A stretch of DNA of 64,000 nucleotides from Bacteroidota bacterium (GTDB lineage: Bacteria > Bacteroidota > Rhodothermia > Rhodothermales > Bin80), in the NCBI GenBank assembly GCA_026709065.1, contig JAPOTS010000100.1, positions 15,625-79,624 on the forward strand. Reading direction: 5' to 3'. Under the pieces are notes generated by a model. The model saw only the letters and a list, made by a program, of their open reading frames with translations. It was not told the origin of the DNA and did not search any database. The number at the start of each line of letters is the position of its first letter. Within the stretch, counting starts at the first letter, position 1. A program made the translations under genes and the position numbers. Positions 5,625 through 23,500 of this stretch are shown here, one piece after another.

Positions 5625-8441
5625 CTACCATCCTGTGGTGTAGGTTAGGCGTGCAGTTGCCGTTCGACCGAGTTTAGGTGCACCAACAAACTCCCTGTGA
5701 TTACTGTCCAATGCATTATTGATTCCGAGATCAACCCTGAGTGATGAATTAATTCCATAGCCGGCTCCAATATCCATGATCAAATAGGACGGTACATCGC
5801 CTCTGTACTGCCCTGAAATAACAGGAAAGCCATCTATATAACGCCCCGACGCATTGATTGAGAACCCAGATTCAAGGTTATATTGACCTCCAAATTTAAC
5901 CTTTATCGTTGGCGCATTCATTGATAATTCTCGATCTTCTTGCTCTTCACCTAATTCAATATGATCAAAGTAATTGTCACTGATCCAAGATACATTGGTA
6001 AACACCGTCAATGCTGGGGATAGGATCGCTTGAACAGAAACATCTGCACCGAAATAAGCAACGCTTCCAAAATTAGGATACGACAACATAATTTCTGGTG
6101 ACTTTCCTTCTCCTGGGTTATTCTCATTTGGTTGTACAATCGCAATTGGCGTTGTTGGACCTGGTAGAGCAGTACCTGCGACATCCACAAGAAGTTGCCC
6201 CGCCTCTTCGGGAGTGAGTCCAAAGAGCCCAAGGGCATTTGTAATGATGGTGTTATTAGTAATTCCGTTGGAAATATCTCGGGCGAGGTCTTGCGTTAAG
6301 GTTGGAACTAATACGAACGGCGTACGAACTTGAAGGCCCCCCAAGAAATTTTTTCTGGTTGAATAATAGGCATCAATGGCGAATAGGACATTCTCATTGA
6401 TGATTCCTTTATATCCTAACTCAATGACCTGAGATATCGTTGATTGTGCAGGATTCAAATCTTCTAAATCACTCAATCCGGTTTCAATTTGTAGCGTACT
6501 TAAATTCAAGGATCCCAAAACGCCTGGGCTAAATCCATCAACAACTATTGATTCAGGGCTCAATGCAGCTTTAAGAAGTCCAATTAATGCAGGAGGTACA
6601 TCCAACCCGACACTCCGTAATTGATCACCAAGTTCTTCATCTGGTATTGCCGCTAGCCCTTGGTACATAAAATCATAAATTATCCCGGTACTGATTCCGA
6701 CAGGCGTTGGCGAACCCAGAAATGCAGGGATTAAACTGGAAGCAACCAGATCCGTTGTTGCACCCAATTTTAAATAATCAGGATTTCGTGCAAAGTTAAA
6801 GGTATTTGCTGACCCTCTAGCGCGGACGTTTAGATCCCCAGGCAGAGATGCAACGACCAAATCTACCCAGTTGGTTGTTGCTGATGGCGATGAATAGCTC
6901 CTATTATAGGTGAGTCTGAAACTAGAATTAAGTGCAGGTTTCATCACCAACCCAAATCGTGGGCTAATCTGAATTTTATCTTGGACATTATTATAATCTC
7001 CGCGTAATGCAAGAGTCAATTCAAGTCTATTGGTCAATTTAGTGGTTGACTGGGCATATAATCCGTATTCATTAATCCCATCACTGAATTCGTTACGCCC
7101 CAGTACAGTGCCCCTTGTATCAGGCCGCGTTAGTTCTACATCAGCGCCGACGATTAATCCTTGACGATCACCCAAATTGATATCATACTGTGCTTGCATA
7201 GATAATTCGGATGAATGATCAACGACAGGAGCTCCCCCATAGACATAACTATCACCCGAGTTGGCCTGATTTAAATACACTTGAGCAAAAAAACTTCCGC
7301 TGGATAGCCTTGCCTGTGCATAAGCACTGCCATAGTTCTGTGCTTGAACCGTTCCGACACCACTTAACAACGCTCCTTTGAGCCCTGAAACCCCTCCATT
7401 CAATGACAATGTAGTATTCTTCCCAGCACGAAAATCTAAATTCCCAGTCACCACATACTTATAAAATTCTGTATCTCTTTCTCCGTCGACAAAAATCTGC
7501 ACAGCATCAGCCTCATCAGGGCATTGACTAAACTGTTGAGCCATCAATAGAGAGCTTTCGCAGGATTGTAGTGCAAAATCTTTAGCCGATGAATAAGCAC
7601 CTGTCACTTTGACACCGATACGATTACTGATAACTTCTGCAATGCGTGTCTGAACATTTAATTGAGATTGTTCACCACCGCTAAGAGCAATCGTCACTCC
7701 TGGATGTGTAAATGCATCTTTTGTAATGTAATGGATCACTCCTGAATCAACCCCTGGGCCGTAGAGAGCTGAACCTGGGCCCCGCACAATTTCTATCCGG
7801 TCTATGTCTACTGATATATTGGGCATCATGCTATGAATATTGAGATTGACCGCTGGTACTCCAGTATCACGATAATCAGTCATTATATATGTAGCCCCTG
7901 AAAACGTATCGTTAAATCCTCGCAATGCCACTTCATTGCGATCAATCCCAGTCTGAGCAATATCTATGCCTGTAACATTTTTGAGCGCCATAACCGTTGA
8001 AGGCACCACTAAATGGGAGATATCTTCGGCTAACAGAACATCAATGGACGCGGGAGTATCAAGAATTTTTTCCTGCCTTCGACTTGCTGTTACCTGTAAT
8101 TGATCTAAATCTACCCCGCTAATTAATTCAATATCTAATTGATAAACTTCCTCTCCAGAATGATCAATTTCAATTTCAAAGTTTTTATACCCCGTAAACG
8201 ATACGCGTATCAAATTTTTGCCCGCTGGTAGTCCCTCCAGAGAATAATATCCTTCCTCATCAGAAGAAACTCCTTGCCCTGAATTAACATGAAGCACACT
8301 TGCCCCAAATAATGGCAAACGAGTCTCTACATCTGAAACTGTACCAGTGATTGAAATTAATTGGGCATGCGACCAAGATGGAGTCACAGATATAATAATA
8401 AATGTTGCTAGGATAGATAGTATTCTAATACTCATTATCAA
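5625..8441 (-). CDS. TonB-dependent outer-membrane receptor with signal peptide and CarboxypepD_reg-like domain; paralog of 1-2742
   Basis: Signal peptide followed by ITGTVSD...GYKNFEI (carboxypeptidase regulatory-like fold), then plug and barrel, ending TYTTGW. It is collinear with the first receptor over its full length. Confidence 0.9.
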   Translation of the reverse strand: MIMSIRILSILATFIIISVTPSWSHAQLISITGTVSDVETRLPLFGASVLHVNSGQGVSSDEEGYYSLEGLPAGKNLIRVSFTGYKNFEIEIDHSGEEVYQLDIELISGVDLDQLQVTASRRQEKILDTPASIDVLLAEDISHLVVPSTVMALKNVTGIDIAQTGIDRNEVALRGFNDTFSGATYIMTDYRDTGVPAVNLNIHSMMPNISVDIDRIEIVRGPGSALYGPGVDSGVIHYITKDAFTHPGVTIALSGGEQSQLNVQTRIAEVISNRIGVKVTGAYSSAKDFALQSCESSLLMAQQFSQCPDEADAVQIFVDGERDTEFYKYVVTGNLDFRAGKNTTLSLNGGVSGLKGALLSGVGTVQAQNYGSAYAQARLSSGSFFAQVYLNQANSGDSYVYGGAPVVDHSSELSMQAQYDINLGDRQGLIVGADVELTRPDTRGTVLGRNEFSDGINEYGLYAQSTTKLTNRLELTLALRGDYNNVQDKIQISPRFGLVMKPALNSSFRLTYNRSYSSPSATTNWVDLVVASLPGDLNVRARGSANTFNFARNPDYLKLGATTDLVASSLIPAFLGSPTPVGISTGIIYDFMYQGLAAIPDEELGDQLRSVGLDVPPALIGLLKAALSPESIVVDGFSPGVLGSLNLSTLQIETGLSDLEDLNPAQSTISQVIELGYKGIINENVLFAIDAYYSTRKNFLGGLQVRTPFVLVPTLTQDLARDISNGITNNTIITNALGLFGLTPEEAGQLLVDVAGTALPGPTTPIAIVQPNENNPGEGKSPEIMLSYPNFGSVAYFGADVSVQAILSPALTVFTNVSWISDNYFDHIELGEEQEDRELSMNAPTIKVKFGGQYNLESGFSINASGRYIDGFPVISGQYRGDVPSYLIMDIGAGYGINSSLRVDLGINNALDSNHREFVGAPKLGRTATARLTYTTGW

Positions 8442-8900
8442 TATTAATTATTTGATTACAGCATAACAGGACTATTGCGACTAATTTCATTGTTTATGCA
8501 ATATAACGATTAGACTGAATCGCTTGATATTCAAAACTTCTATCAGCATGAAAGATCGTCCAATTTATCACTCAAATGGTCCATGAATGCATTTGTCTCA
8601 CTGAATTCAAATCTCATGGTATGTAATCATCAATGCAAAATAGAGGGTTAACATATGAATCAATTTAACATTCAATTCATTCTAAGTTGTTAGGTCATTG
8701 TCGGGATGTCATGGGAAATTCAATTACGTGTTTGGAATTCGAAATATAGCCTTCAAAATTGAGAATATTTGTTTGTTTTATTCAAATCTTAATCCAATCA
8801 ATTAGAGCCATCTGCGTGACTCAGAGGTCTTTATTTGTTACTTCTTCGGTATTATCTTCACCCGATTTTACTGTAAATTTAATTGATTGTACGGGCTAAT

Positions 8901-10262
8901 TTATGTCCAAGGTCCCGAAATTGCCAACGTTAAGCCATCGTGCTGAATATTAACAAAAAGCGTTGTACCGTCTGGTGAAAAGGTTGCACCAGCTAGCTCT
9001 GAATGGCTTACAGCATTACGAGCAAACTTATACAATTCTCCTTCTGGTGTTACGCCAACAAGAAATTGCTCATTAGATCCATCCTCGCATACAATAAGGT
9101 CTCCCCAAGGCGTGACAGTGAGATTGTCAGCATTTTCAATCATCCCTGGATCATTGGGTTCAATAAATAATTCCAACGTATCCTCGCTAGGAGACAGCCT
9201 CCAAATCTGGCCATACTTAGCATGCCCCCCATTGGTGCAGGCAAAGTAGACCGCATCATTGCCATACCACATTCCTTCTCCACGCGCAAATCTAGCTGCA
9301 CCCTGATCAAAACCCCGAATCCTTAAATCATCTAAGGGAGCCTCAATTTCATCCATGTCTATCCACTTGACATTCATTATTGATCCTACGGTTACCGTCT
9401 GTGAATCCCAATTACGAGTATCAAGACTAGGCATTCCAATGACTTCTAAAGCCTGTAATTTCCCACCTGCTTCCAAGTTATTTGGATCCAGAGGAATAAA
9501 TCGATAGATCAAACTATCATGCGCGTCTTCTGTCTGATAAATGATATTTGTCTTTGGATCTACTGCGACTGCCTCGTGATTGAATCGCCCCATGGCTCGA
9601 ATTGGAACTGGAGGTGCAATCATTGGAGAAACACTTGCTGGAACCTGAAAGACATATCCATGATCTTTGGCTAACCCATTCCCTGCCAGATCAGTTGTTT
9701 CTTCGCATGTAATCCATGTATTCCATGGAGTTGGTCCACCTGCACAGTTACGCAAGGTGCCAGCAAGGCTTAAATACTGTGATACCAATTGCTGTGAAGC
9801 CGTATCATAAATAAAGGTTGTTGTTCCTCCAAGTGCTGGGCTTCCTTCGGCTCCAGCATCATAGAGAAGGGCTGGATCAATGCGATCAATCAGCTCATTA
9901 TTCGGGCCAAATGCTCCCATACTCGGATCTGCATTAGAGTTGACTTCATGGTTTCTAATCACGATGGTTTCACCATTATGCCCTTTGAATGTCGCCATCC
10001 CATCTGCCGCGCCAGGTACATAGAATCCATCATCCATCAAGTCATTCATTCGGGTAACGATGTTGTATGTAAAATTTTCGGGCAGGTCCATAACTCCATC
10101 TGGATCGCTGATGAGCGGGCCAAACCTATCCTTAGCTTTCGCTGAAAAACCTTGACAACCAACCAAAGAGTGAAGTCCAACAAAACCTAGTGCAAACGCA
10201 CTGGATGTCTGGAGAAATTGACGGCGTGAGGCCATTGACTTGTATGATTCAGGAGTATTCAT
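8901..10262 (-). CDS. Tat-exported PhoX-like / DUF839 beta-propeller protein (putative phosphatase)
   Basis: Twin-arginine leader SRRQFLQTSSAFALG. Body motifs (NCAGGPTPWNTWITCEE, GRFNHEAVAVDP, PDGTTLFVNIQH) are typical of the DUF839/PhoX family. Confidence 0.65.
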   Translation of the reverse strand: MNTPESYKSMASRRQFLQTSSAFALGFVGLHSLVGCQGFSAKAKDRFGPLISDPDGVMDLPENFTYNIVTRMNDLMDDGFYVPGAADGMATFKGHNGETIVIRNHEVNSNADPSMGAFGPNNELIDRIDPALLYDAGAEGSPALGGTTTFIYDTASQQLVSQYLSLAGTLRNCAGGPTPWNTWITCEETTDLAGNGLAKDHGYVFQVPASVSPMIAPPVPIRAMGRFNHEAVAVDPKTNIIYQTEDAHDSLIYRFIPLDPNNLEAGGKLQALEVIGMPSLDTRNWDSQTVTVGSIMNVKWIDMDEIEAPLDDLRIRGFDQGAARFARGEGMWYGNDAVYFACTNGGHAKYGQIWRLSPSEDTLELFIEPNDPGMIENADNLTVTPWGDLIVCEDGSNEQFLVGVTPEGELYKFARNAVSHSELAGATFSPDGTTLFVNIQHDGLTLAISGPWT

Positions 10263-11175
10263 GATTTAGGGATAAGTTTTCAATACAGTGATGCCAAGAA
10301 GTAAGCTCAGATTAAGATATGGCTTCGGACATCATAAACGCTAAACATCAATAGCATGTTGCTTTATGGACCTAATTTGATTCTTGAACCCACAGTGCTA
10401 AAGCATATTTCCCTAAATTCCCATCATGCACCTTATGATGATGCGTCAGCGAATTGCTAAACTCATTACTGTATACTTTACTGCATGTGACTCTTCATAG
10501 TGTCAGCGTTGTGTTCAATAATTTGATGTGATTCAATAACATCCTGTTCAAAATGATTTAATTTAGATCAATTAACTTTTAATTCGTGACACAAGAAATG
10601 AATCTATATGATAATATATCACAGAGTTACGTGTGGAATGGCCGAAGAACGATGATATGGTTGCTAATGTGAGCCTTGATGAGATAGCGTTAATTCTGGG
10701 GAATCAGTCTGAATATGTTCATCAGATTAACCATCTAGCAAATTGATTCAAAGAAGTTATTGGATTGAAATGATAGGCTTGTGATCTTAGATGCAGACGA
10801 TCTATTATGCGTTGGCAAGTGGGTGAATCTGACCCGATTTTGAACCATGATGTCCATGGTTCACCATATCATTTCATCAATTGATATTACACTTTATGGT
10901 TGATCAGTGTTTACGGTTAATGTCAATCAGAAGACTCCAGTATGAGTTTTCCAAGAAAGTCAATAATTGTGTAGGAATGAATATATTTAGATACGATGTG
11001 GTTTCCCTTGTTGTTGCTTTCTGTTGAAGAGGCACTAATATCAGTCCGATCAGTTTTATTTTTACAAGATCTCTGTTAAAGTCATCAAAAGATGTTAATT
11101 TTGTAGAAATTATCTCAGAATAATCAATTAGTATCATGATCCTATAGGTGCAAGATTTAATGCATCATAGTTATC

Positions 11176-12432
11176 GTGAAATCTTCAAGATTTACCAACC
11201 GTCATCTTATGAGTCAAAAAAAATTCATTGATCTTTTCGCTGGCTGTGGTGGTCTGTCCCTTGGACTAGTCAAGTCTGGTTGGAATGGTGTTTTTGCTAT
11301 TGAAAAATCAGAAGACGCGTTTAAGACATTTCACACTAATTTTTGTCAAGAACATTCAAAACTGCATTTTAAGTGGCCTTCTTGGCTACCCCTTAGGGCC
11401 ATGACAACCCAACAATTACTCACGCAATTTCCTAAACAGCTCAACGACCTCAAAGGAAAGATTGATATGATCACTGGGGGACCTCCATGTCAGGGATTTT
11501 CATTGGCAGGTCTCCGTAATCCTAATGATCCAAGAAATGAACTCATACAAGATTATATTGCAGTGGTCAGAATTGTTCAGCCAAAATTAGTACTCTTAGA
11601 AAATGTCAATGGAATTAACATGAAGTTTCCTCATCAGGATTCCCCTTATTCAATAAAGATTCAAAATCTACTGAAATCTTGTTCTGATCATGGTTACAGA
11701 GTTCATTCATCCATGTTGAATGCATCTGCCTTTGGGGTACCCCAGATGCGCAGTCGTTACGTCATGATTGCCATTCGTGGAGACATGCCCAAATTATTTA
11801 ATAATCCTTTCGATTCATTAAGCGACGCATTACCTCGTTTTCTTAAAGTAAGAGGACTCACTGGCGCAGAAACGATGGTGCGAGACGCGATAAGTGACTT
11901 AGAAATCAACGATCGAAAACTTAAATCCAGCGTTGATACACCTGGCTTCTTCCAGATCCCCTACGATGAAAAACATTCTCTCTCCACTTATCAACAGTTG
12001 ATGCGTCAAGACGTTGGTAAAAATTTTGAACCAAATAGCCTACGTCTTGCAAATCACCGAAAAGAAACCCAGTCTCGTTTCCAGAGAATTTTGCATGAAT
12101 GTCCCAAAGGAGTCTGCATGTCAAAAGAGGATCGTAAGAAATTTGGGTTAAAGAAACAATCTCTTACACCACTGCATCCCGAAAAACTAGCCGGAACAGT
12201 AACAACCATTCCTGATGATATGATTCACTATCACGAGCCAAGAGTTCTCACGGTTCGCGAAAATGCTCGACTTCAGTCATTTCCTGACTGGTTTAATTTT
12301 GAAGGGAAATATACCACGGGAGGGCATCGTCGCAGGCATGAATGTCCCCGCTATACACAGGTTGGAAATGCCGTTCCACCTCTGATGGCCGAAGCAATTG
12401 GTGAAACTCTACTCCATTTATTGGCCTCATGA
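11176..12432 (+). CDS. dcm: DNA (cytosine-5)-methyltransferase
   Basis: All canonical C5-MTase motifs are present in order: I FAGCGGLSLG, IV GGPPCQGFS, VI LLENV, VIII QMRSRYVMIA, IX RENARLQSFPDWF, X GNAVPP. The likely real start is the ATG at 11209 (MSQKKFIDLFAGCGG). The stop overlaps the next start (ATGA at 12429-12432). Confidence 0.95.
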   Translation: MKSSRFTNRHLMSQKKFIDLFAGCGGLSLGLVKSGWNGVFAIEKSEDAFKTFHTNFCQEHSKLHFKWPSWLPLRAMTTQQLLTQFPKQLNDLKGKIDMITGGPPCQGFSLAGLRNPNDPRNELIQDYIAVVRIVQPKLVLLENVNGINMKFPHQDSPYSIKIQNLLKSCSDHGYRVHSSMLNASAFGVPQMRSRYVMIAIRGDMPKLFNNPFDSLSDALPRFLKVRGLTGAETMVRDAISDLEINDRKLKSSVDTPGFFQIPYDEKHSLSTYQQLMRQDVGKNFEPNSLRLANHRKETQSRFQRILHECPKGVCMSKEDRKKFGLKKQSLTPLHPEKLAGTVTTIPDDMIHYHEPRVLTVRENARLQSFPDWFNFEGKYTTGGHRRRHECPRYTQVGNAVPPLMAEAIGETLLHLLAS

Positions 12433-14735
12433 ACGAATCTAAGAATCTTAGATTTATCGCCCATGCGCGCTTGAAAGATATTATTGGACGAGGTCTCATT
12501 AATAATGACAACATTGCAATAATTGAGCTGATCAAGAATTCAAGAGATGCAGAATCTGAGCATGTTTCCATTAAATTTCATAAACCGGGTATTCTATATA
12601 TCTCTGATCATGGGGAGGGAATGTCCATGGAGGATATACGATATAAATGGCTCAATATTGCTTATTCCGCTCGCAAAAATGCAGATCCTAATCACCCTAA
12701 AATATATGCGGGTAATAAAGGAATTGGACGATTCTCGTGTGACCGTCTTGGCAAAAAACTGATCTTGTATACACGAGCTAAGAACGGTCAATTCATTACA
12801 TTAGAAATCAACTGGCCTGATTTTGAGCAGGACAGTCGTGATATAGAAATTGGACACATTGAGACGGAGGCTAGGTTCATCACACCCAAAGAATTTCAAC
12901 AACAGACAAACATTAAACCTTTTGATCATGGTACGGTACTTGCCATCAGTCATCTAAGATCTGATTGGACCGAGGATAAACTCAAGTCACTAAGACGGGA
13001 ATTAGAGAAGTTTGTGATTGCCCCCGCTGAACGGTTTAAAGTTGAACTTTACCACCATGGGTTTGATCAAGATCATGAGATCAATGGTCCCATTGAGAGC
13101 AAGATTTTTGAACTGCTAGGTTTTAGAACATCATCCATCAGTGCCAAAATAGATGAAACCGGAAACGAAATTCATATATCGCTCCGACATGATGGTGACT
13201 ATATCTTTGAATCTACTGAGAAAAACTCATATTCTCAACTCAAGAATATTAAGGCAATTATCTACTTTCTCAATCAACCCGCGAAGGCTTTCTTCAAACG
13301 CTATACTGGATACCATTCTGTTGAATATGGATCTATTTTTTTCTTCTTGAATAAATTCAGAGTATTCCCTTATGGCTCAGAAGGGGATGATTGGCTTGGC
13401 ATTGATCGCCGCCGACAACAGGGACAGATGCGCTTTTTTGGTACCCGTGATCTCGTTGGCTTCATTCAAGTGGATGACCTTGAAGATCAGTTTATTCCGG
13501 TGTCCAGTAGAGAAGGACTGATTCACAATACGGCGTACCATGAACTTACATCCATAAGCGCTGATGTACCCTCATCGCTTGATGATACAATGCAGTATGG
13601 CTTATTCCATAAAATCATGAGAAAACTGGAAAAATTCGTGGTTAATGGCCTAGACTGGGACCGAATTAAACGATCCGGCATCACTGAAGAAAAATTGATT
13701 ACTGGCGAGTTTGAATATCTGCATACCCATAGACCTGTATTTGAGACAATCGACTCCATTATTAAGCTGCGTTCCTCAACTGAGAGTATAATCGATTATA
13801 AAATCAATCTCTCACATCTTTCCAAAATTGCTCATCAGGAGACAGAGCAATTTGAGAAATTAGTTGAAGGATTGAAAGAAAAATTTGCAGGATCCTCTAT
13901 TGATCAAATCAAACCACATGAAAAACGTAATCTCTCAAAATTTATTAGTCGTCTGGCGAAGGAATTAGCTGCTAAAGAGCAAACCACCGTAGAATTGGAA
14001 AAAAAAGAAGCAGCCGCAACAAAGAAGTTAGCCACCGAACAGAAGCGTCGCTTATTTGCCGAATTTCAAAGTAGTGTTGATCAAAGTCGCATGCTACAAC
14101 TGCATCATCAGATTAACTTAATTGCAGGTTCATTATGGAAGCGATTCGATGGTATCGCACGTCGAGAACGCAAAGATCCTGATCAGTATTCAAAGGGAGA
14201 TTTACTTGAAGTAATTCACTCGGGCATTTTTGAGATTAATCGTATAAGAAACGTTACGAAGCTTGCATTGAAAGCCGATTTTGACCTTATGACCAATAAG
14301 GTTAAGGTAGATCTAATCCAATTTATTCAGGAATATCTCGAAAATTACAAAGAAATTCTCTCGGCATGGAATCTAAAAATGAGATTTACTAACGAAGACT
14401 CGGTGCAACTCATCAAATCATTTCGCCCCATTGAGGCTACTCTTCTTATTGACAATTTATTGGTCAATTCTGGCAAAGCTGATGCCGATACAGTGTATGT
14501 TAATGTTTTTAAGCACACCGGGAAAACAATCATTGAATTTGTTGATAATGGCAACGGATTAACGGATCGCTTTGAGTATTCGGATCTTTTCGAAAAAGGT
14601 ATATCTACGACATCGGGGGCAGGAATTGGGCTGAATCATTCCCGCGAGATTGTTCTGAATCTTGGCGGTATAATTCAGATTTCTAATGCGAAAAACAATG
14701 GTGCGAAAGTCACGATATCGTTTGACAACACATGA
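12429..14735 (+). CDS. Dual Bergerat-fold (GHKL) protein: N-terminal MORC/Hsp90-like ATPase module, central coiled coil, C-terminal histidine-kinase-like DHp+CA module
   Basis: N-terminal module: ELIKNSRDAE (ExxxNxxDA N-box), DHGEGMS (DxGxGM), GNKGIGRFS (GxxGxG). C-terminal module: LQLHHQINLIAGS (candidate H-box, H559/H560), DNLLVNSGKA (N-box, about 117 aa after the His), VDNGNGL (G1), LFEKG (F), GAGIGLNHS (G2). A Lys/Glu-rich coiled-coil stretch lies around LAKELAAKEQTTVELEKKEAAATKK. Confidence 0.75.
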   Translation: MNESKNLRFIAHARLKDIIGRGLINNDNIAIIELIKNSRDAESEHVSIKFHKPGILYISDHGEGMSMEDIRYKWLNIAYSARKNADPNHPKIYAGNKGIGRFSCDRLGKKLILYTRAKNGQFITLEINWPDFEQDSRDIEIGHIETEARFITPKEFQQQTNIKPFDHGTVLAISHLRSDWTEDKLKSLRRELEKFVIAPAERFKVELYHHGFDQDHEINGPIESKIFELLGFRTSSISAKIDETGNEIHISLRHDGDYIFESTEKNSYSQLKNIKAIIYFLNQPAKAFFKRYTGYHSVEYGSIFFFLNKFRVFPYGSEGDDWLGIDRRRQQGQMRFFGTRDLVGFIQVDDLEDQFIPVSSREGLIHNTAYHELTSISADVPSSLDDTMQYGLFHKIMRKLEKFVVNGLDWDRIKRSGITEEKLITGEFEYLHTHRPVFETIDSIIKLRSSTESIIDYKINLSHLSKIAHQETEQFEKLVEGLKEKFAGSSIDQIKPHEKRNLSKFISRLAKELAAKEQTTVELEKKEAAATKKLATEQKRRLFAEFQSSVDQSRMLQLHHQINLIAGSLWKRFDGIARRERKDPDQYSKGDLLEVIHSGIFEINRIRNVTKLALKADFDLMTNKVKVDLIQFIQEYLENYKEILSAWNLKMRFTNEDSVQLIKSFRPIEATLLIDNLLVNSGKADADTVYVNVFKHTGKTIIEFVDNGNGLTDRFEYSDLFEKGISTTSGAGIGLNHSREIVLNLGGIIQISNAKNNGAKVTISFDNT

Positions 14736-15649
14736 AACTTTCGTACGATATTCTTTGGGTTGACGACAATCTTGATTCCATTGCGGAAGACCGAAGGACT
14801 ATTGAAGAATTTCTTGAGGGTTTTGGGATTTACGCCAATATATCACCTGTGACAAATTCAGATGACGATTTATTGAATGAGCATATTCACAATCCTGATC
14901 TTGAAATTCTTTTAGTTGATTATCACATGGACGACATGGATGGAGCAGATTTAATTAATCGTATTCGTCAAACGAATCATGTGTATTTGCCCGTCATCTT
15001 TTACTCTTCAAGTCCTCTTGAAGTCTTACTCAAAGCGGCAAATGAAGCACAACTTGATGGTGTATACATTGCACAGAGAGACTTTTTGATCCAGAAATTT
15101 CAAGATGTCGCTAAAAGTCTTCTCAACAAGGAACATACCATCAAGCGTATCCGCGGTTTATTGATGGAGGAAGTCAGTGAGATTGACGAAAAGTTACAAG
15201 AGATCTTCCGTATGATATGGAATGGGCTCTCGGGTAATAACAAGAAAGAATTGATGATTTATCTCAAAGATAAAATCATTCAGCAGCGGGCAGATAGTGC
15301 CAATAAAAAGCTTAAAAACTTCCCCAACACCGTTGATGATTTTTCACAGCATATGAGTGAGCGATTTTTATCAAAATCATACGATACTTATACCAGATGT
15401 AGAATCGTAAATAAAATGCTCGGATTCAAGAATAATAATTTAGGTGAGTATAAACAAGTTTTTAAGGAGTTCTTTAACCATGGTAACGAGGATTCCATTA
15501 ATCGTCTTCGAAATAATTATGCTCACACTCCGCTTCGGACTTTGAAACAAGCTCACTCTTTAGAGAACTGTGTGAAAATTCGTAAAGAATTACATCGCCA
15601 ACTCAAGAATATTAATCGTATCATTGATTATCTGTCTGCAGAACCTTGA
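14732..15649 (+). CDS. Receiver (REC) domain protein with C-terminal alpha-helical HEPN-like domain (putative phosphorylation-gated RNase effector)
   Basis: REC motifs: WVDDN (acidic pocket D11/D12), ILLVDYHMDDMDG (phosphoacceptor D63), VIFYSS (S/T position). The C-terminal roughly 180 aa look helical and carry RLRNNYAH (R260-H265, nt 15509-15526), which matches the HEPN Rx4-6H / RNxxAH signature. The start overlaps the upstream stop (ATGA at 14732-14735). Confidence 0.6.
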   Translation: MKLSYDILWVDDNLDSIAEDRRTIEEFLEGFGIYANISPVTNSDDDLLNEHIHNPDLEILLVDYHMDDMDGADLINRIRQTNHVYLPVIFYSSSPLEVLLKAANEAQLDGVYIAQRDFLIQKFQDVAKSLLNKEHTIKRIRGLLMEEVSEIDEKLQEIFRMIWNGLSGNNKKELMIYLKDKIIQQRADSANKKLKNFPNTVDDFSQHMSERFLSKSYDTYTRCRIVNKMLGFKNNNLGEYKQVFKEFFNHGNEDSINRLRNNYAHTPLRTLKQAHSLENCVKIRKELHRQLKNINRIIDYLSAEP

Positions 15650-16320
15650 GCAATTCTTGGTTCAAATTCATTGGTGTAATTTATGACTACCTATCCGCTA
15701 TTTATTACAAGAGATTCATATATTCAACATGGATTTTCCAAGTTGTCCTGGTCGCTTATCTTTATCCAATCACCATGTTGGTCGTTGATCCGTCTTAACG
15801 TTTCTTCTGTTAGAGGGTTTTTAGTCAAACTAGCGATTTAGATGTGATTAAACTTGTTTACAATCTTGACAAAAATCATCCTGTTATCAAGACATGGTGT
15901 TCATGTAGCAACGGCTTGATCGTTTGTTGATATCTATACGAAGATCCCACACAGGATCATTGATTTGAGAAAAGTTATTCGAGTCAAATGCGTTGATCGC
16001 CATAGTAACGGGTTTGAAAATTAGGTTATGCCCTCCTATCAATACAAAGGGCCCCATCAGATCCATTCCAACGATACGTTTGGACGATTGAGTCCATACC
16101 AATTCTCAAATTTTAGCAAAAACAGCTATTACGGGCAAAATAAAGGCAATGAATCAATGAGGCGTAACTTTGATAAATTTCTAGATTCAGATGTAATGTC
16201 CATAGTTGACGGTATACCAAATAATATACCCCTTAGGATCTTAAAACCAAATTTGGTAGTATCGTATGGATAGGGTCTTCAGATCAGTTAATGATTCTCT
16301 GATGATGACCCTGAGAAGAA

Positions 16321-18207
16321 TTAGGGACTGATTCTATCCATTCTCGCAATCCAAAGCCCACTATTTAGATCCGAAGTGTAGATATGCCCCTTGAAAATCT
16401 GCGCACCCCATGTCATTGGCCATCCAGGAACCATGGATTGATCATCGGTCGTTAAAATATGAGCAATTTCTCGACCTTGATCATACAGATTCCCGCGGAG
16501 TTCTCCACTAATATCAACGACTCGCAATCCCCCTTGATAATACCCTACATATAATCGCTCATCTTCAACCCATATATTATGTGCACCTGCATCAGGGACT
16601 TCGTATCTTGCCACTTCAATTGGAGCCTCCATATTTGATACATCCAATATATGGATATAACCTCTGGCATCCAATGGCTTGCCCGCATCCCAATTGTCAG
16701 GGAAAATTTCGTCTCCAACAAATAAATATTGACCATCTCTCCATGCAACATGCGTATGACCCTCTGGATAAGAAAGACGACTCACCATGATTGGAACCGT
16801 AGGAGTTCCACCATGCGTTCCAGCTCCAACATCAAGGATTACAACCCCATCATCCCAATAGGATAGATAGGCATATCCATCTTGGACAATGACATCATGG
16901 AGTGTCTTATCCTCTTTATTCAAACCCCATCTACCAACCTCCATCGGATTTTCTCGGTCACTGATGTCAATGATATGCAATTCACTTGTTCCATTATGAC
17001 ACGCATAAACAAGATCCTCCTCAATCCATACATTATGCACACCTCCAGTCACTGTTCTGGAATACTCCGATAGAATTGTCGGATGTGCAGGGTTGGTAAG
17101 ATCTAAAATGACAATTCCATTACGCCGATTAGATGCTCCTTCACGTGTAATCACTGCAATCTCATTGCTATGATGAATCTTCACATCGTTGATCCTGCGA
17201 GCATCCACCCGAATGGAGTCCATTAAAACGGGGGTGTCTGGAGTGGTCACATCAAAAACCTTCATCCAATCATACATAAACGTGCCGACATATGCATAAT
17301 CACGACCATCAATACCTTCAAAAGCCCACATGTCCCCAGAATGATGATGAGCAATTGCTCCCCGACCTGCAATTGACAACGTTTCCTGATGAATCCGCTC
17401 TTCAACTGGTAAAATGAGTGTTCTCTGAATATCAATTCCAATATGTGCAGTAATGGTATAATCCAATGCCTGATCTGCCACAAATATCCCCTCACCCCCC
17501 TCATTAGTCAAGTAAAATCCATCACCAGAGACTTCCCACCGAGGATATATTCCATCAACTATATCACCATTTTCATCCGTTGCTTGGACACGAAAACGAA
17601 CGACATCACCTTGTCGTACAATGTAACGATTCTGTGCAATTTGATAAGACACAGAAGGATTTTCACGAACGAAAACCTCAACATTTGTTGAGTGCCCATG
17701 AGCTTGAACCGAAACGACTGCCGAGCCAGGGCTCTGAGCATGAATGTATCCTTGCTTAGTAACCCTCGCCACTGATACATCATTACTTTTATAGCGAATA
17801 CGCCCCTCTATGGCTTGACCGTCAAGTGTTACTTTGATTGGCATACTCGTTTGGGAAAGAATAAACGGTGCAGACAAGCTCGCAACCAAATTAGCCTCCC
17901 GATTCTTCTCTACTGTAATCTCTGCATATCCAGGTTTTCCACCAAGAACAACAACGAGTATCGCCGTGCCGGGTGAATGAGCCTCAACAATTCCGAATTC
18001 GTTCACCGTTGCAATGCTAGATTCTGCAATATGCCATCTTGGGCTCAACCCAGCGACTACTTGGTCATCTTGATCATATGCTATGCCAGAAAATATGAAT
18101 GTATCTCCAACCTCTATTGAGGCTGACTTCGGTGAAATTTCAACTTTATCTGGAAGCTCTAATCCAGTATTAAGTTGCATGAACATTCCTAAAAGAATCA
18201 ACACCAT
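16321..18207 (-). CDS. Secreted protein with Big_2 Ig-like domains and an LVIVD-repeat beta-propeller
   Basis: Two Big_2-like segments (ATVNEFGIVEAHSPGTAILVV; VARVTKQGYIHAQSPGSAVVSV). These are followed by repeated LVIVD-type strands (GIVILDLTNP, ELHIIDISD, GVVILDVG, YIHILDVSN, GLRVVDISG). Confidence 0.6.
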   Translation of the reverse strand: MVLILLGMFMQLNTGLELPDKVEISPKSASIEVGDTFIFSGIAYDQDDQVVAGLSPRWHIAESSIATVNEFGIVEAHSPGTAILVVVLGGKPGYAEITVEKNREANLVASLSAPFILSQTSMPIKVTLDGQAIEGRIRYKSNDVSVARVTKQGYIHAQSPGSAVVSVQAHGHSTNVEVFVRENPSVSYQIAQNRYIVRQGDVVRFRVQATDENGDIVDGIYPRWEVSGDGFYLTNEGGEGIFVADQALDYTITAHIGIDIQRTLILPVEERIHQETLSIAGRGAIAHHHSGDMWAFEGIDGRDYAYVGTFMYDWMKVFDVTTPDTPVLMDSIRVDARRINDVKIHHSNEIAVITREGASNRRNGIVILDLTNPAHPTILSEYSRTVTGGVHNVWIEEDLVYACHNGTSELHIIDISDRENPMEVGRWGLNKEDKTLHDVIVQDGYAYLSYWDDGVVILDVGAGTHGGTPTVPIMVSRLSYPEGHTHVAWRDGQYLFVGDEIFPDNWDAGKPLDARGYIHILDVSNMEAPIEVARYEVPDAGAHNIWVEDERLYVGYYQGGLRVVDISGELRGNLYDQGREIAHILTTDDQSMVPGWPMTWGAQIFKGHIYTSDLNSGLWIARMDRISP

Positions 18208-18265
18208 GATACCTATGTCAGTTAAAAGCGCATAAACCTATTCTTATGCCGTATGATCCAAATGA

Positions 18266-19660
18266 ATGAACTTTAGCATGCCTTCAAGCCAACAAAGAGG
18301 CCTCTTCACACATGAAGCACGTAAAGTCTCACTCCTGTGTATCCCAATCGTAGCCACTCAACTAGGACAGATAAGTAATGGGTTTATTGATGTCATCATG
18401 GTTGGGCGTCTAGGTCCCCCCGAATTAGCCGGTGTTGCTCTCGGCAATGCCACATATTTTCTCTTTGCTCTGATCGGAATTGGAATCTTGTTAGCTGTCG
18501 GGCCGCTGGTCTCCCAAGCTTATGGGGCAAAAAACTATACCCCAATTAGTCGGACCGTTCGTCAGGCAGTTTGGCTAGCCACACTGATGTCTATCCCAGT
18601 GATGTTCATCATGTGGAACGCACGATTACCTTGGAATCTAATGCAACAAGATGCGGCCACAATTACTTATGCAGAAGGGTATCTAAGAGCGGCTGTCTGG
18701 GGATTTCTTCCATTTATGTTATTCAATGGACTCCGAAATTTTGTTGAAGCTATTAGCCGCCCCTTTCCTGTGACAATCATTATAGTACTGGGAATACTGC
18801 TCAATATCGTTGCAAACTATGGCTTGATGTATGGTAACTTCGGCCTTCCAGAACTTGGATTGAATGGGACTGGATGGTCCACATGCATTGTTCACTGGTT
18901 TATGTTCATCAGCATTGCTGTTTACGTCACATTCAAGGATCCTTTTCGGTCGTATGAAGTGCTGAAAAAACTCCGAGTTCCAGACTTGGTCTATTTCCGA
19001 GAACTTTTGCGAGTTGGCCTTCCTATCGGAGGATCCATCGGTTTGGAAGTTACGTTGTTTAGTGCTACTGCATTTCTGATCGGTACATTTGGGGCAATAC
19101 CCATTGCAGCCCATCAAATTGCGATTCAATCTGCTGCAATTGCATATATGGTTCCACTGGGTATTGGATTGGCCACCTCTGTGCGTGTAGGGCAAAATAT
19201 TGGAGCTAAGGATCCTGGAGCTGCCGCTGTATCAGGATTCACTGGAATTGGAATATCTTTTGTATTTATGATCTGCACTGCACTCTTATTTCTCTTTGCT
19301 CCACAATTGGTTGCTGCTGTGTATTTAGACCTGAATGATCCAGCTAATTTTGAAACCGCCACGCAAGTGATTCGCTTCTTAGCAATTGCCTCAATTTTTC
19401 AGATTTTTGATGGCGTACAAGCCACTGCACTTGGTGCTTTACGAGGGTTAAAAGACACGCGAATCCCAATGATTTTAGGGTTTATTGCCTATTGGCTCAT
19501 TGGCATGCCTACAGGGCTAAGCCTTGGATTTGGATTAAACATCGGACCAGAAGGATTTTGGTGGGGACTTGTCGTTGGTCTTTTTGCCGCATCAATTATG
19601 TTTTTCTATCGCTTTCATCGTATGACTCAAAAACTTCCCAATGCTTCGATACCCGACTGA
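18266..19660 (+). CDS. MATE-family multidrug/sodium efflux transporter
   Basis: About 460 aa and 12-TM-like, with the two-halves architecture and typical MATE N-terminus (P.V..QL.Q...GF.D..MVGRLG), plus GALRGLKDTR in the second half. Confidence 0.8.
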   Translation: MNFSMPSSQQRGLFTHEARKVSLLCIPIVATQLGQISNGFIDVIMVGRLGPPELAGVALGNATYFLFALIGIGILLAVGPLVSQAYGAKNYTPISRTVRQAVWLATLMSIPVMFIMWNARLPWNLMQQDAATITYAEGYLRAAVWGFLPFMLFNGLRNFVEAISRPFPVTIIIVLGILLNIVANYGLMYGNFGLPELGLNGTGWSTCIVHWFMFISIAVYVTFKDPFRSYEVLKKLRVPDLVYFRELLRVGLPIGGSIGLEVTLFSATAFLIGTFGAIPIAAHQIAIQSAAIAYMVPLGIGLATSVRVGQNIGAKDPGAAAVSGFTGIGISFVFMICTALLFLFAPQLVAAVYLDLNDPANFETATQVIRFLAIASIFQIFDGVQATALGALRGLKDTRIPMILGFIAYWLIGMPTGLSLGFGLNIGPEGFWWGLVVGLFAASIMFFYRFHRMTQKLPNASIPD

Positions 19661-19892
19661 GTGTTAGGCGATTGAGGGGTTTGTAAAACATATTTTCTGA
19701 ATGAATCGCAAATTGATTCCCTGAGATATAATTTCCATTGATGATGATTTATTAAGAATTGGTTAATAATGAATAAACATCAAACAGTTTGAATCATTTA
19801 AGTTAAAGATGATCAATGCACTGCATCTGATCAAAAGTTGAGCTAATGTTTATGAAATATTCTATTTTGGTCAAGCGTATTGATTTTTGCCG

Positions 19893-19900
19893 TAAATTTG
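19893..19900 (+). promoter_or_regulatory. Candidate Bacteroidota-type -7 promoter box (TAnnTTTG) upstream of actA
   Basis: TAAATTTG lies 30 nt upstream of the actA ATG, with a TTTG at 19866-19869 as a possible -33 element (spacing slightly long). Confidence 0.3.
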
Positions 19901-19929
19901 CGCGTCCTTCAAAAAAGGCACTCTAAACA

Positions 19930-20577
19930 ATGCCGCAAATATTTCCCAAAAAATCTAACCTACTCCCTCATGTTTCGCTCGGTGCTTTGATGGGGAGCGG
20001 TTTGGTGGCTGTTTTTTTAGTTTGGTACTATTTTTCTCCCGAATACACTGATGTTGGTTATGCTCCAGAACAACCCGTATCCTATAGCCATCGGGTCCAT
20101 GTAGATCAATTAGGCTTGGATTGTAGATACTGCCACAGTTTTGTAGAAGTAGCTGATATGTCCAATGTTCCTGCGACTGAAACCTGTATGAATTGTCACG
20201 AAGTCGTTCTTCCCCAAAGCACAGAATTGATTCCCGTGCGTGCGAGTTGGGCTGATGGATCATCCATACCTTGGGTAAAAATTCACCAGCTACCTGATTA
20301 CGCACAGTTCAGCCATGCCGCTCATGTCAACAATGGTGTTGGTTGCGAAACATGTCATGGAAGAGTTGATAATATGGATGTTGTCCACTTAGTTGAACCA
20401 CTTTCAATGGGCTGGTGCCTTGAATGTCACAGAGAACCTGAAAAATATTTGCGACCCAATGAGGAAATTACAACTATGGGGTATGTTCATAGTGACGGAT
20501 TTCTTGAAGACAACTTAAACCGCATCAAGCAGGAAGGAATCCGACCTCCAACAAATTGCAGTGCCTGCCACTATTAG
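19930..20577 (+). CDS. actA: Alternative Complex III subunit ActA (pentaheme cytochrome c)
   Basis: N-terminal membrane anchor and five CxxCH motifs (CRYCH, CMNCH, CETCH, CLECH, CSACH). It is the first gene of an act-type cluster. Confidence 0.85.
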   Translation: MPQIFPKKSNLLPHVSLGALMGSGLVAVFLVWYYFSPEYTDVGYAPEQPVSYSHRVHVDQLGLDCRYCHSFVEVADMSNVPATETCMNCHEVVLPQSTELIPVRASWADGSSIPWVKIHQLPDYAQFSHAAHVNNGVGCETCHGRVDNMDVVHLVEPLSMGWCLECHREPEKYLRPNEEITTMGYVHSDGFLEDNLNRIKQEGIRPPTNCSACHY

Positions 20578-23500
20578 TCTGTTACGCTATGATATCGCTT
20601 CCTGTAATTGACGCTCCTTCGGAAAGTATAGGACATAAGATGTGGCGTAGTCAGCCCCATCTACATCAGAATCCAGAGCTCACAGAGTTAGCCTCAGAGG
20701 AACTCCTACCCGGCGCGAGTGACCCACCTTCAGGGACTAATCGTCGTCATTTTATGCAACTACTTGGCGCATCAATGGCACTAGCTGGCCTGGCTGCTTG
20801 TCGTCGTCCAGTAGAATATATTATGCCTTTTTCAGATCGCCCTGAGGAACTCATACCAGGTGTGCCCTTGAATTATGCTACGACAATGAATTTTCGTGGG
20901 ATTGCGCGCCCACTATTGGTAAAAAGCTATGACGGAAGGCCAATTAAAATTGAAGGTAATCCAGACCATCCGAATGCCTCAGGTGCCTCAGGAGTTTATG
21001 AACAAGCCTCGCTACTTCAACTGTATGATCCCGATCGCTCACAACAAATACTGCGTTCTGGCTCCCCTTCAACATGGAGCGATGTTTTAGATCTCTGTCA
21101 ACAGGCACAATCAGCAAACCGTAGAATCGCTGTATTAGCAGCTCCAGATAGTTCTCCATCTCGTGCCCGACTGCGTAGCCAACTTGAAAATCAGTATGAC
21201 AATTTTCAATGGATAGACTATCGCAGTGAGGGCGATGATACGCAAACGCTTGGCCTACAGATGGCTTACGGCCTACCATTAAGACCCGTATATGATTTTG
21301 AGAATGCTGACATCATCGTCAGCTTAGATGCTGATTTTCTTGGCCCCCATTCCAAGAATGGAAACTGGAACACCTATTCCTTTGCTCAAGGTCGTAGACT
21401 CTCTGATGCCGAAGATCAGATGAGCCGCTTGTATGTCATTGAAAGCACGTATACCTCTACAGGTACGATGGCCGATCACCGTAAAAGAATGCGATCGGAT
21501 GAAATATCCAATATTGCTAGTCAACTTGCGACGGCTTTGAATATCTTCTCTGGTGCCCAGCCCAACTCATTAATATCTCAAATCGCAGAAGACCTTCGCA
21601 ATTCTGATGGACGTTGTATCGTGATTGCAGGAGAGACCCAGCCCGCAGAAGTCCACGCGTTATGTGCACAAATTAATCAAAGTTTAGGTGCTATTGGGAC
21701 AACGATCACACTTCTTGACACGGGCGAACCCGTTCAGTCTCCCCAATCAGAGACACTCCCCGCACTTGTAGAGGATATTAATTCTGGTGAAATTGATCTA
21801 CTGTTGATCTTAGGGGTCAATCCAGTCTATGATGCTCCCCTTGCATTGAACTTTCAATCCGCATTGGAGCAAGTAACAGATACCGTCCATCTTGGGCTTC
21901 ATGTAGATGAAACTGCGCAATCCTGCACATGGCATATTCCTCAAACCCACTACCTTGAGGCTTGGGGGGATGCACGCTCCTGGGACGGAACACTGACCCC
22001 TGTTCAACCCTTAATTGCCCCACTTTACGAAGATTGCCATAGTGAAATTGAACTGCTTGGCGCTCTCTCCAACGGCGAACCAATCAATGGCTATGACTTT
22101 GTTCGTCAAACATGGAATTCAGTCATTGATTCTGAGGATTTTGAGACGGCATGGCGACGTATCTTGCATAATGGGTTCCTTGATGATACAGGATTTGAAT
22201 CTGTAACTCCTACTCCCTCATTCAATGGGCAACTTCCTGCTCTAAATACTGGTTTAGAGCTTGTGATGCGTCTTGATGCGACTGTGCTTGATGGAAGTTT
22301 TTCCAATAATGCATGGTGCCAAGAACTCCCTGATCCAATTACTAAAATTGTTTGGGATAATGTTGCTGTCATCAGTCCTCAAACTGCACATGATTATGGA
22401 CTGGTGTGTGAGTATTCTAAGGGCCATTATATCTCTGACATCATCACTCTGTCTGCCAATGGGCACCAAGTTGACTTACCTATTTGGATCTTACCTGGGC
22501 ATGCTAACAATTCAATTTCAGTAACTCTGGGGTATGGTCGTGACATTTCAACGAAACGCCCCAATAGGGACACCCCCTTCTGGGATAAAGATGATGAAAC
22601 AGATATCTATGCTAATGGCGCCTTATCTACGGGAATTGGGGGCAATGTCTCTGGACTTAGAAACATGCATGGAGAGCTTGTGATCTTCGATGTTGAACTC
22701 ATAGCCACGGGACGTAAATGGACGATCGTCACTACTCAGGATCACGGGATTCTTGACACCGAAGCCCGCCCATTGATTCGAATGGCGACGCTTGATGAAT
22801 ACCGCCAAGACCCCGCATTCGCACTTCAAGACGAAGCACCCACTCCAAGTTCGGATATAAAAACAGATTTTCAAGATTATCCAGAGCTCTGGAAAGACTC
22901 CCATCCTGCTAAAACCCCATCATTCCGGGATAGTGATTACTGGAAAAACCAATGGGGCATGGCCATTGACCTCAATACCTGCACGGGTTGCAATGCATGT
23001 ATCATAGCATGTCAGGCAGAGAACAATATTCAGGTTGTAGGTAAAAAAGAAGTCGGTAACGGTCGAGAATTGCACTGGCTCAGAGTTGATCGATATTTTG
23101 TCACCGAAGGTGGAACAGATCTTGATGCGGATCCACAGATTGTGATGCAACCGATCCCCTGCCAACATTGCGAAAATGCCCCATGTGAATCTGTCTGCCC
23201 AGTTGCTGCCACCGTGCATTCACCCGACGGCACCAATCAGATGATCTATAATCGGTGTATCGGAACGCGCTATTGCGCCAATAACTGTCCCTATAAAGTC
23301 CGACGGTACAATTTTTATAATTGGTCCAAGACCATTCCTGAAACCGTCCAGATGGCTCAGAATCCCAATGTGTCCATTCGCTTCAGGGGTGTGATGGAAA
23401 AATGCTCATTTTGTATCCAAAGAATTCGAGAAACACAAAAAAGGGCTGGACTGGAAAAACGACCATTGCACCGCGATGAGGTTGCCACGGCTTGCCAACA

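Follow-up and report, generated by a model that had tools for sequence, protein, structure and literature searches.

What signal is received, and what response is given, by a soluble histidine-kinase-like protein that carries two different GHKL ATPase modules and is encoded directly behind a cytosine DNA methyltransferase? The question is raised by a stretch of 64,000 nucleotides (nt) from a Bacteroidota bacterium (assembly GCA_026709065.1, contig JAPOTS010000100.1, positions 15,625-79,624 of the forward strand), hereafter the window, in which the open reading frame (ORF) at 12429..14735 on the plus strand is intact and encodes a protein of 768 amino acids (aa), referred to here as the kinase. 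It is the middle gene of three, following a C5 methylase and preceding a 305-aa response regulator, and there is hardly room for doubt that the three form a translationally coupled cassette, with the methylase stop overlapping the kinase start and the kinase stop overlapping the regulator start, in both cases as ATGA. The answer favoured here is that the cassette would be a restriction-modification (R-M)-like abortive-infection system in which the 768-aa protein acts as the sensor-transmitter, a mechanism whose chances of being right in full are put at about even or a little lower. The genes of the cassette are as follows.

11176..12432, plus strand: C5 cytosine DNA methyltransferase (Pfam DNA_methylase, E-value (E) 1.9e-60)
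12429..14735, plus strand: dual-GHKL protein, a paraMORC-like ATPase head fused to a predicted DHp + CA histidine-kinase transmitter
14732..15649, plus strand: 305-aa response regulator

A first-pass annotation of the window, made from the letters alone, had proposed that the kinase is a single polypeptide with two distinct GHKL modules, and this two-module architecture is now as good as certain. Both modules score far above their Pfam cut-offs: HATPase_c_3 (PF13589) matches aa 28-169 with 79.2 bits against a cut-off of 25 (E 3.8e-22) and HATPase_c (PF02518) matches aa 671-766 with 54 bits against 26.4 (E 2.7e-14). From the N- to the C-terminus the protein consists of the HATPase_c_3 domain, a middle domain that by its predicted fold is like those of MORC, SMCHD1 and Hsp90, a long coiled coil, a helical hairpin and the HATPase_c domain. 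All of the motifs quoted in that annotation were found in their places in the protein.

Residues 33-42: ELIKNSRDAE
Residues 60-66: DHGEGMS
Residues 95-103: GNKGIGRFS
Residues 556-568: LQLHHQINLIAGS
Residues 675-684: DNLLVNSGKA
Residues 705-711: VDNGNGL
Residues 720-724: LFEKG
Residues 730-736: GAGIGLN

An AlphaFold2 (AF2) model of the kinase, built with 43 homologues (mean predicted local distance difference test, pLDDT, 72.8), divides the chain into a GHKL region (aa 1-200), a beta-rich region (aa ~204-460), a long helix that bears H560 (aa 496-582), a return helix (aa 589-615) and an alpha/beta CA region (aa 625-766). On the DNA the parts lie as follows.

12510..12935, plus strand: N-terminal GHKL ATPase domain (HATPase_c_3, aa 28-169), from the Pfam match and motif conservation
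13038..13808, plus strand: beta-rich middle (transducer-like) domain, aa ~204-460, from AF2 secondary structure, Foldseek and conservation
13914..14273, plus strand: coiled-coil stalk running into a DHp-like hairpin (helices aa 496-582 and 589-615), from the AF2 model and Foldseek
14106-14108, plus strand: H560, the phospho-acceptor candidate, an invariant His
14301..14726, plus strand: CA ATP-binding domain, aa ~625-766, from the Pfam HATPase_c match and conservation

The kinase is soluble and has no classical sensor domain. Its Kyte-Doolittle mean over 19 residues peaks at 1.02 and no transmembrane segment was found in it, nor was there a Pfam match to PAS, GAF or HAMP, even at E 10 for the middle region (aa 201-670). 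The MORC-like head and the middle domain are therefore the only candidate input module, as had been supposed. In the head, motifs I (E33xxxN37xxD40A41), II (D60xG62xG64), III (G98xG100) and IV (G168-T169) can all be recognised, and in 43 close and 48 distant homologues E33, N37, D40, D60, G62, G64, G98, G100, G168 and T169 are either invariant or conserved to at least 90%; as predicted from this conservation, the ATPase looks catalytically intact. The middle domain has no Pfam match; a block of strong conservation within it covers aa 286-365 (K286, F289, G301, G316, D321, R340, G344 and R361, each invariant or at least 90% conserved). Foldseek comparison of the model with the PDB aligned 400-460 columns on SMCHD1 (6mw7), MORC2 (9cdh) and the N+M domains of Hsp90, GRP94 and TRAP1 at E ~1e-10, with template modelling (TM) scores of only 0.3-0.5, normalised to target, for a model of pLDDT 72.8. 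By predicted fold, head and middle domain thus resemble the ATPase modules of MORC2, SMCHD1 and Hsp90. In MORC and paraMORC proteins the GHKL domain precedes a transducer domain of S5 fold, with which it makes up a single ATPase module. The nearest matches at the level of sequence families are of another kind. The NCBIfam model for the BbrUII/HgiDII restriction enzymes (NF050001) matches only aa 20-207 of the kinase, against positions 14-198 of its 659 (E 3.5e-22), and its 78.7 bits against a family cut-off of 550 are too few for full-length membership. The only PADLOC matches of the kinase are to N-terminal models of REase_II.

The C-terminal half is predicted to be a histidine-kinase transmitter, made up of a DHp-like hairpin and a complete CA domain. 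The Lys/Glu-rich coiled coil that the first-pass annotation had noticed before the candidate His corresponds in the model to the start of a continuous helix, aa 496-582, and the helical hairpin that had been looked for around H559/H560 is present, the second helix being aa 589-615. That annotation had left the phospho-acceptor as either H559 or H560. Position 559 varies among homologues (C, S, Q, L, N or T) and H560 is the only invariant His of the hairpin (43 + 48 homologues, 78 loci), so that H560 is the candidate and H559 can be dropped. The spacing that had been remarked upon for a DHp helix also holds, with 116 residues from H560 to N676. In the CA domain the N box (N676, N680), G1 box (D706xG708xG710), F box (F721) and G2 box (G730xG732xG734) are invariant or at least 90% conserved. 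Foldseek placed the C-terminal ~230 columns of the kinase model on the DHp+CA parts of HK853, WalK/YycG and ZraS at E 1e-11 to 1e-12, and phmmer related the kinase CA domain to that of HK853 (2c2a/3dge) at E 2.4e-5.

If a phosphoryl group does leave H560, the obvious recipient is the 305-aa protein encoded downstream, which has two domains.

14732..15121, plus strand: REC domain of the 305-aa regulator, from Pfam Response_reg, alignment, AF2 and Foldseek
15134..15649, plus strand: C-terminal all-alpha HEPN-like domain, aa ~135-305, predicted RNase effector, from a motif, relatives' matches and AF2

The AF2 model of the regulator (pLDDT 87, predicted TM score 0.80) has a (beta-alpha)5 domain ahead of an all-helical one, and its REC part superposes on CheY with a TM score of ~0.7, normalised to target. 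An alignment of 35 sequences has as invariant key residues the acidic pair D11/D12, the phospho-acceptor candidate D63 (nt 14918-14920), S92 and Y112.

The second domain of the regulator, of HEPN type, went unrecognised in the first-pass annotation, and it shifts the likely output of the system from transcriptional regulation to an abortive-infection-type effector. Two motifs of the helical domain are invariant, R141-G-L-L-M-E-x-V-S-E-x-D152 and R260-N261-x-Y-A-H265 (nt 15509-15526), the second of which reads R260-N-N-Y-A-H265 in the window. Of 60 partner proteins, taken from all clades, 59 contain RNxxxH, in the variants RNxYAH, RNxLAH and RNKFAH, whereas among the other ORFs encoded at these loci, used as background, it is present in 7 of 593 (1.2%). 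Rx4H is the signature of HEPN RNases, and the criterion for HEPN is an all-alpha domain with Rx4-6H, typically R-N/H/D-xxx-H; the regulator's C-terminal domain shows both the motif and the all-alpha fold. Pfam HEPN_RiboL-PSP is matched by 9 of the 35 family members (best E 7e-6) and HEPN_Apea by 3, while the regulators of other clades give weak matches to HEPN_RiboL-PSP and HEPN_MAE_28990, and there are stray weak matches of the domain to CARF_HEPN and Csm6 models, beyond which profile searches of NCBIfam and PADLOC yielded nothing. From this evidence the domain is likely to be HEPN, with a predicted RNase activity.

The distribution of the cassette was examined by a scan of one genome per species, which found 173 relatives in 185,579 species genomes, a patchy distribution typical of defence genes. 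The best 80 loci were kept, and 78 of these with a complete kinase ORF were used for counts of synteny. A methylase lies directly upstream on the same strand in 71/78 and anywhere within the locus in 76/78, so that the R-M gene neighbourhood by which MORC and paraMORC proteins are judged is present next door in those 71. Directly downstream, 62/78 loci have a homologue of the window regulator, whose start overlaps the kinase stop by 4 nt in 43 of the 62. The cassette spans at least 10 phyla, the taxa being Bacteroidota, Rhodothermales, Alpha-, Beta-, Gamma- and 'Delta'-proteobacteria, Planctomycetota, Zixibacteria, Nitrospinota, Cyanobacteria/Melainabacteria, Acidobacteriota, Chloroflexota, Elusimicrobia and Clostridia. 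When 1.84 billion cluster representatives (50% identity) were searched with the profile, 2,006 came back at E<=1e-30; the best 150 clusters score at least 479 bits, most of them aligned over nearly the whole profile, and both GHKL domains were found in 48/48 sampled diverse cluster representatives. Genome annotation names the kinase only 'ATP-binding protein' or 'sensor histidine kinase'.

It is also clear from close relatives and from conjugative plasmids that the cassette is horizontally mobile. In the window it sits between phoX/SusC-like and LVIVD/MatE genes, and a 78%-identical cassette (locus L082) lies between uxaC and dctPQM, in a neighbourhood unlike that of the window. In that locus (L082:1-5618 and 11353-14151) an N6_N4_Mtase + ResIII type III-like R-M pair was seen ~2.9 kilobases (kb) upstream of the cassette methylase, beyond uxaC, which is consistent with the habit of defence genes of gathering in islands. 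A phage origin of the cassette was considered and rejected, as phage records are essentially without it: a search of 50,697 turned up just two partial matches, both short and unannotated.

Variants of the cassette are of some interest in their own right. A Campylobacter jejuni plasmid (NZ_CP092024.1, L085) carries a 27%-identical 732-aa 'sensor histidine kinase', a response regulator of 340 aa and, convergently oriented, a dcm gene, and this version is also present in 40 further Campylobacter plasmid records, the plasmids being pTet-like and conjugative. On an Enterobacter mori plasmid (NZ_CP119171.1, L081) the H-box reads H-E-G, the partner is a 357-aa REC-X protein, there is no adjacent methylase and an AbiJ-NTD4 gene lies nearby. 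In a distant clade, mostly of Bacteroidota, the kinases are 808-865 aa long and 32-35% identical (L039, L048, L061, L065, L067-L074, L076-L078 and L080), and two co-directional genes stand in place of the REC-HEPN gene, for example at L061:10448-11889, downstream of the kinase. The first encodes ~230-245 aa with a weak REC-like N-terminus and without RNxxxH, the second ~213-249 aa, and neither product has a Pfam match; the replacement looks like effector swapping. In a 9.6-kb metagenome contig (P0102) the C5 methylase continues in frame through a linker of ~95 residues into the dual-GHKL kinase as a single protein. Either the fusion is genuine, and would then support physical coupling, or an indel from sequencing or assembly has arisen where stop and start overlap.

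How the parts might work together can be set out as follows. The methylase would mark the host's own DNA. The GHKL head would dimerise or clamp in an ATP-dependent manner on unmethylated foreign DNA, as in MORC, MutL and paraMORC3/Shedu, probably with the methylase as its sequence-recognition partner, in the way that Res uses Mod in type III systems; the methylase-kinase read-through of the metagenome contig hints at such physical coupling. A conformational change would then run down the coiled coil to the DHp dimer, the CA domain would autophosphorylate H560, and the phosphoryl group would pass from H560 to D63 of the regulator. Phosphorylation-driven dimerisation of REC may join two HEPN domains into a composite Rx4H RNase site, and RNA cleavage would arrest the infected cell by abortive infection or dormancy. 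The restriction step would thus be a phosphorelay-triggered RNase instead of DNA cleavage. Conservation of the relay, linkage of the cassette and the HEPN motif, taken together, favour a defence phosphorelay as the predicted function. Coupling of DNA-state sensing to phosphotransfer had been suggested by the first-pass annotation; it fits the near-obligate, translationally coupled C5 methylase upstream and stays inferential. Precedents by analogy are Detocs for a His-to-Asp relay to a REC-effector in defence and VcSduA for a GHKL head that is required. The broadest form of the proposal, a widespread and so far unrecognised class of epigenetic self/non-self immunity in which a MORC-type clamp with a C5 methylase as specificity subunit signals through a phosphorelay to a HEPN RNase, is offered tentatively, its chances being somewhat below even.

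A number of observations weigh against this mechanism and must be set beside the alternatives that they favour. With regard to the relay, the kinase has no match to HisKA, HisKA_2, HisKA_3, HWE_HK, His_kinase or HEF_HK, even at E 10 on aa 201-670. In HisKA kinases the Glu or Asp that follows the His acts as general base. H560 is followed by Q, for which relatives have H, K, V, N or I; none of these is acidic, which makes for an atypical DHp, and the AF2 model from which the hairpin was read is only moderately confident. The REC domain is at threshold (30.5 bits against a Pfam Response_reg cut-off of 30.2), the position of the beta5 Lys is held by Arg (R116) in most family members and by Lys in a few, and 15 of the 35 members weakly match the inactive-receiver model iREC (PF22563). 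These features, the confidence of the model apart, would suit a degenerate transmitter, in which DHp/CA and REC form a structural or ATP-binding scaffold and the complex is regulated by nucleotide binding only. Such a scaffold is highly improbable, however: over deep divergence there is little or no variation at H560, in the N, G1, F and G2 boxes, or at the acidic pair, D63, S92 and Y112 of REC, which is unexpected for a dead relay. The acidic pocket and D63 are invariant despite the weak iREC matches, and some accepted HisKA-like families, e.g. PF06580, also lack the acidic residue.

With regard to the output, the HEPN call for the window protein is indirect, coming from the motif, the matches of relatives and the helical fold. 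The window regulator itself matches no HEPN model in Pfam, and a sequence-profile search of the PDB with the HEPN-like domain returned nothing. REC matches dominated the Foldseek results for the full-length regulator model, from the PDB as from the viral library, and only at rank 50, with probability 0.47, did a HEPN protein come up. A match of the regulator to 12aw_A, a 'hybrid two-component system protein', was set aside as uninformative, consisting of REC and low-information helical sequence. A profile search for relatives of the HEPN-like domain outside REC fusions returned only REC-fused proteins, and the PADLOC matches of the regulator are only weak (OloA, Cyclase, ZorA and JukA). Some HEPN-fold domains are non-catalytic, and the RNase activity of the regulator is itself a prediction. 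An ordinary regulatory two-component system, controlling the methylase or a neighbouring R-M system through a helical domain that binds RNA or protein and is neither catalytic nor a toxin, might therefore be considered, and signalling cascades that control R-M systems were indeed proposed by the authors of PMC8011034. It is quite unlikely in view of the regulator, in which Pfam found neither a DNA-binding nor an ANTAR domain nor any other known regulatory output, and in which RNxxxH and a second invariant acidic/Arg motif are kept across very distant clades, which argues for catalysis. The cassette also moves alone into unrelated neighbourhoods, so that there is no constant target operon.

With regard to the trigger, the co-variation of methylase and kinase was examined in a sample of 71 methylase-kinase locus pairs (L001-L080 and the window). 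Identity in the methylase variable (target-recognition) region ranges from 12% to 100%, and its partial correlation with each kinase region was at most 0.17 over 2,485 pairs of loci, a crude test in which the pairs are not independent. Within the limits of this exploratory test no co-varying specificity element was found in the kinase, nor any sign that the head recognises a DNA sequence or its methylation; the middle domain is not variable but strongly conserved. Between methylase and kinase, pairwise identities correlate only at r 0.3-0.5, as against 0.7-0.9 among the kinase's own regions, which suggests that methylase partners or specificities were exchanged during evolution of the cassette. 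The low co-variation and the loose divergence both count towards a defence or addiction module with the same REC-HEPN output, in which the Hsp90/MORC-like head senses something other than methylation, be it a phage protein or falling levels of ATP or nucleoside triphosphates (NTPs), and in which the methylase acts separately or selfishly, for example as an orphan giving protection from another restriction system or lending the cassette stability. The head is as near in fold to the protein clamps Hsp90 and TRAP1 as it is to MORC, a methylase is absent next door or otherwise oriented in L008, L025, L026, L037, L046, L051, L081 and L085, and NTP sensing has been considered before (PMC8011034). 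Against this stands the methylase itself, adjacent and usually translationally coupled in 71/78 loci across phyla and within the locus in 76/78, a linkage so tight that it is hard to explain without joint function. In addition, the nearest sequence-family matches of the head are N-termini of restriction enzymes, and paraMORCs are R-M associated (PMC2292703). A trigger other than methylation is thus rated unlikely.

Two further points must be held against the methylation-sensing phosphorelay as proposed here. PADLOC v2.0.0 has no model for such a system, and no experimental work on any family member was found in the literature. The statement in the first-pass annotation that the architecture is not known from characterised proteins therefore stands as far as experiment is concerned, although the dual-GHKL architecture itself is not new.

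The architecture was described in silico in 2021 by Bellieny-Rabelo, Pretorius & Moleleki (PMC8011034), who reported dual-GHKL proteins (HATPase_c_3 + HEF_HK + HATPase_c) with a response-regulator-like (RR-like) partner and a C5 methylase. HATPase_c_3, DHp and HATPase_c were found together in 174 of 222 HEF_HK proteins, and the Pfam families HEF_HK (PF19191) and Response_reg_2 (PF19192) were defined. The authors proposed descent from paraMORCs, speculated on NTP sensing or on direct or indirect control of R-M systems by signalling cascades, and found no other currently known domain in the RR-like proteins (PMC8011034). The likeness to the window cassette is considerable: a soluble protein with HATPase_c_3, a His-bearing DHp-like helix pair and HATPase_c, an RR-like gene immediately downstream, a C5 methylase usually upstream and a patchy distribution over many phyla, both being known from bioinformatics alone. 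The H-box differs, being His then Glu/Asp in HEF_HK and H-Q-(I/V) in the family of the window kinase, and the window partner, unlike Response_reg_2, scores as canonical Response_reg and carries the HEPN-like domain. PF19191 did not match the window kinase, 48 diverse relatives or the kinases of L061, L072 and L081, and PF19192 did not match 35 family members, 10 regulators of other clades or 4 downstream proteins of the distant clade. Membership of the two families was therefore rejected, as neither was ever matched by the window proteins or any relative tested, and the window cassette is a sister variant of HEF_HK-type systems, not a member by the criteria of that paper (PMC8011034).

Other systems share parts of the cassette. 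VcSduA/paraMORC3 (Shedu type I-D) is a GHKL ATPase fused to a PD-(D/E)xK nuclease (PMC2292703; PMC12137116), and its E27A mutant loses defence, showing that the GHKL head is needed for the fused effector (PMC12137116). It resembles the kinase in having an N-terminal GHKL ATPase and a clamp-like middle domain followed by a fused output, and in its R-M/defence context, but the output there is a nuclease, whereas here it is a histidine-kinase transmitter with a separate REC-HEPN effector and a cassette methylase. The window head is like paraMORCs and is not assigned to a numbered paraMORC family. The paraMORC survey of Iyer et al. 2008 (PMC2292703) makes no mention of a kinase or receiver fusion, and the HEPN survey (PMC3710099) none of a REC-HEPN regulator paired with a kinase. 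Detocs (DtcA/DtcB/DtcC) is an anti-phage abortive-infection system that works by His-to-Asp phosphotransfer to a REC-effector (bioRxiv 10.1101/2023.01.24.525353). A cytoplasmic sensor kinase signalling to a REC-effector that aborts infection, with swappable effector domains, is common to both; Detocs differs in its TPR sensor, its buffer receiver DtcB, its mainly PNP-type ATP nucleosidase effector and the lack of a methylase, whereas the window cassette has a GHKL head, a HEPN effector and a methylase and is without a third, receiver-only gene. No sequence relationship to Detocs appeared among the PADLOC matches returned, the presence of Detocs models in PADLOC v2.0.0 not being confirmed. The BbrUII/HgiDII type II restriction enzymes (NF050001) have a homologous N-terminal GHKL domain, but only the first ~185 of 659 positions match and the remainder is replaced in the kinase by the middle domain, DHp and CA. 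HgiDII, too, has a C5 methylase as its partner. Class I histidine kinases such as Thermotoga HK853 and WalK/YycG are alike in DHp+CA fold, in CA sequence and in the distance of ~116 residues from the His to the N box; the window kinase differs from them in that membrane, PAS and HAMP input are all lacking, the residue following the His is not acidic and HisKA models of Pfam do not match.

In a literature search from which subscription journals were mostly absent, no system combining a REC-HEPN protein, a GHKL kinase and a methylase was found described. What is new here is the predicted REC-HEPN effector, a measure of how widely and how strictly the three genes are linked, and the phosphorelay-RNase defence model that results. 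The family is a large one, of ~2,000 clusters at 50% identity, without known function. If the model is true, methylation-based discrimination would gain a third output logic, next to DNA cleavage as in R-M and the blocking of replication as in BREX-like systems, Detocs would be joined by a second family of defensive two-component systems (TCS), and a MORC-family ATPase would for the first time be seen as the input domain of a histidine kinase. The cassette would also offer a tractable bacterial model of how a MORC/SMCHD1-type ATPase takes in a DNA or epigenetic signal and sends out another downstream. Recognition of HEPN gives what had been a vaguely described 'TCS-like element' a set of defined candidate residues, E33/N37, H560, D63 and R260/H265.

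Some features of the cassette and its surroundings may be added. The methylase is also matched by TIGR00675 dcm (E 6.7e-47) and PADLOC MTase_II (E 1.6e-83), and its catalytic Cys lies in a PPCQGFS motif. Its start is ambiguous, the longest ORF beginning with GTG at 11176 (418 aa) and public calls on identical contigs with ATG at 11209 (407 aa); the Pfam match begins at residue 16. No flanking direct repeats were found at the cassette, and a scan for promoters and terminators there gave results at chance level. Small ORFs at 10904..11137 on the minus strand and at 16028..16273 have no credible family match and are not conserved with the cassette; the second, of 81 aa, has a sub-threshold match to Phage_spike_P1 (E 0.0035) that is probably due to chance. 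The GC content of the cassette is only modestly lower than that of its surroundings (0.37-0.41 against 0.43-0.45). AT-rich intergenic stretches of ~0.7-0.9 kb (10263-11175 and 15650-16320, GC 0.34-0.36), without a conserved ORF, border it on the two sides. Beyond them the cassette appears as a small insertion among ordinary Bacteroidota housekeeping and uptake genes (window 5625-10262 and 16321-23684), a non-defence neighbourhood in which a SusC-like TonB-dependent receptor, a PhoX alkaline phosphatase, an LVIVD/Big_2 surface protein, a MatE exporter and multihaem cytochrome-like proteins are encoded.

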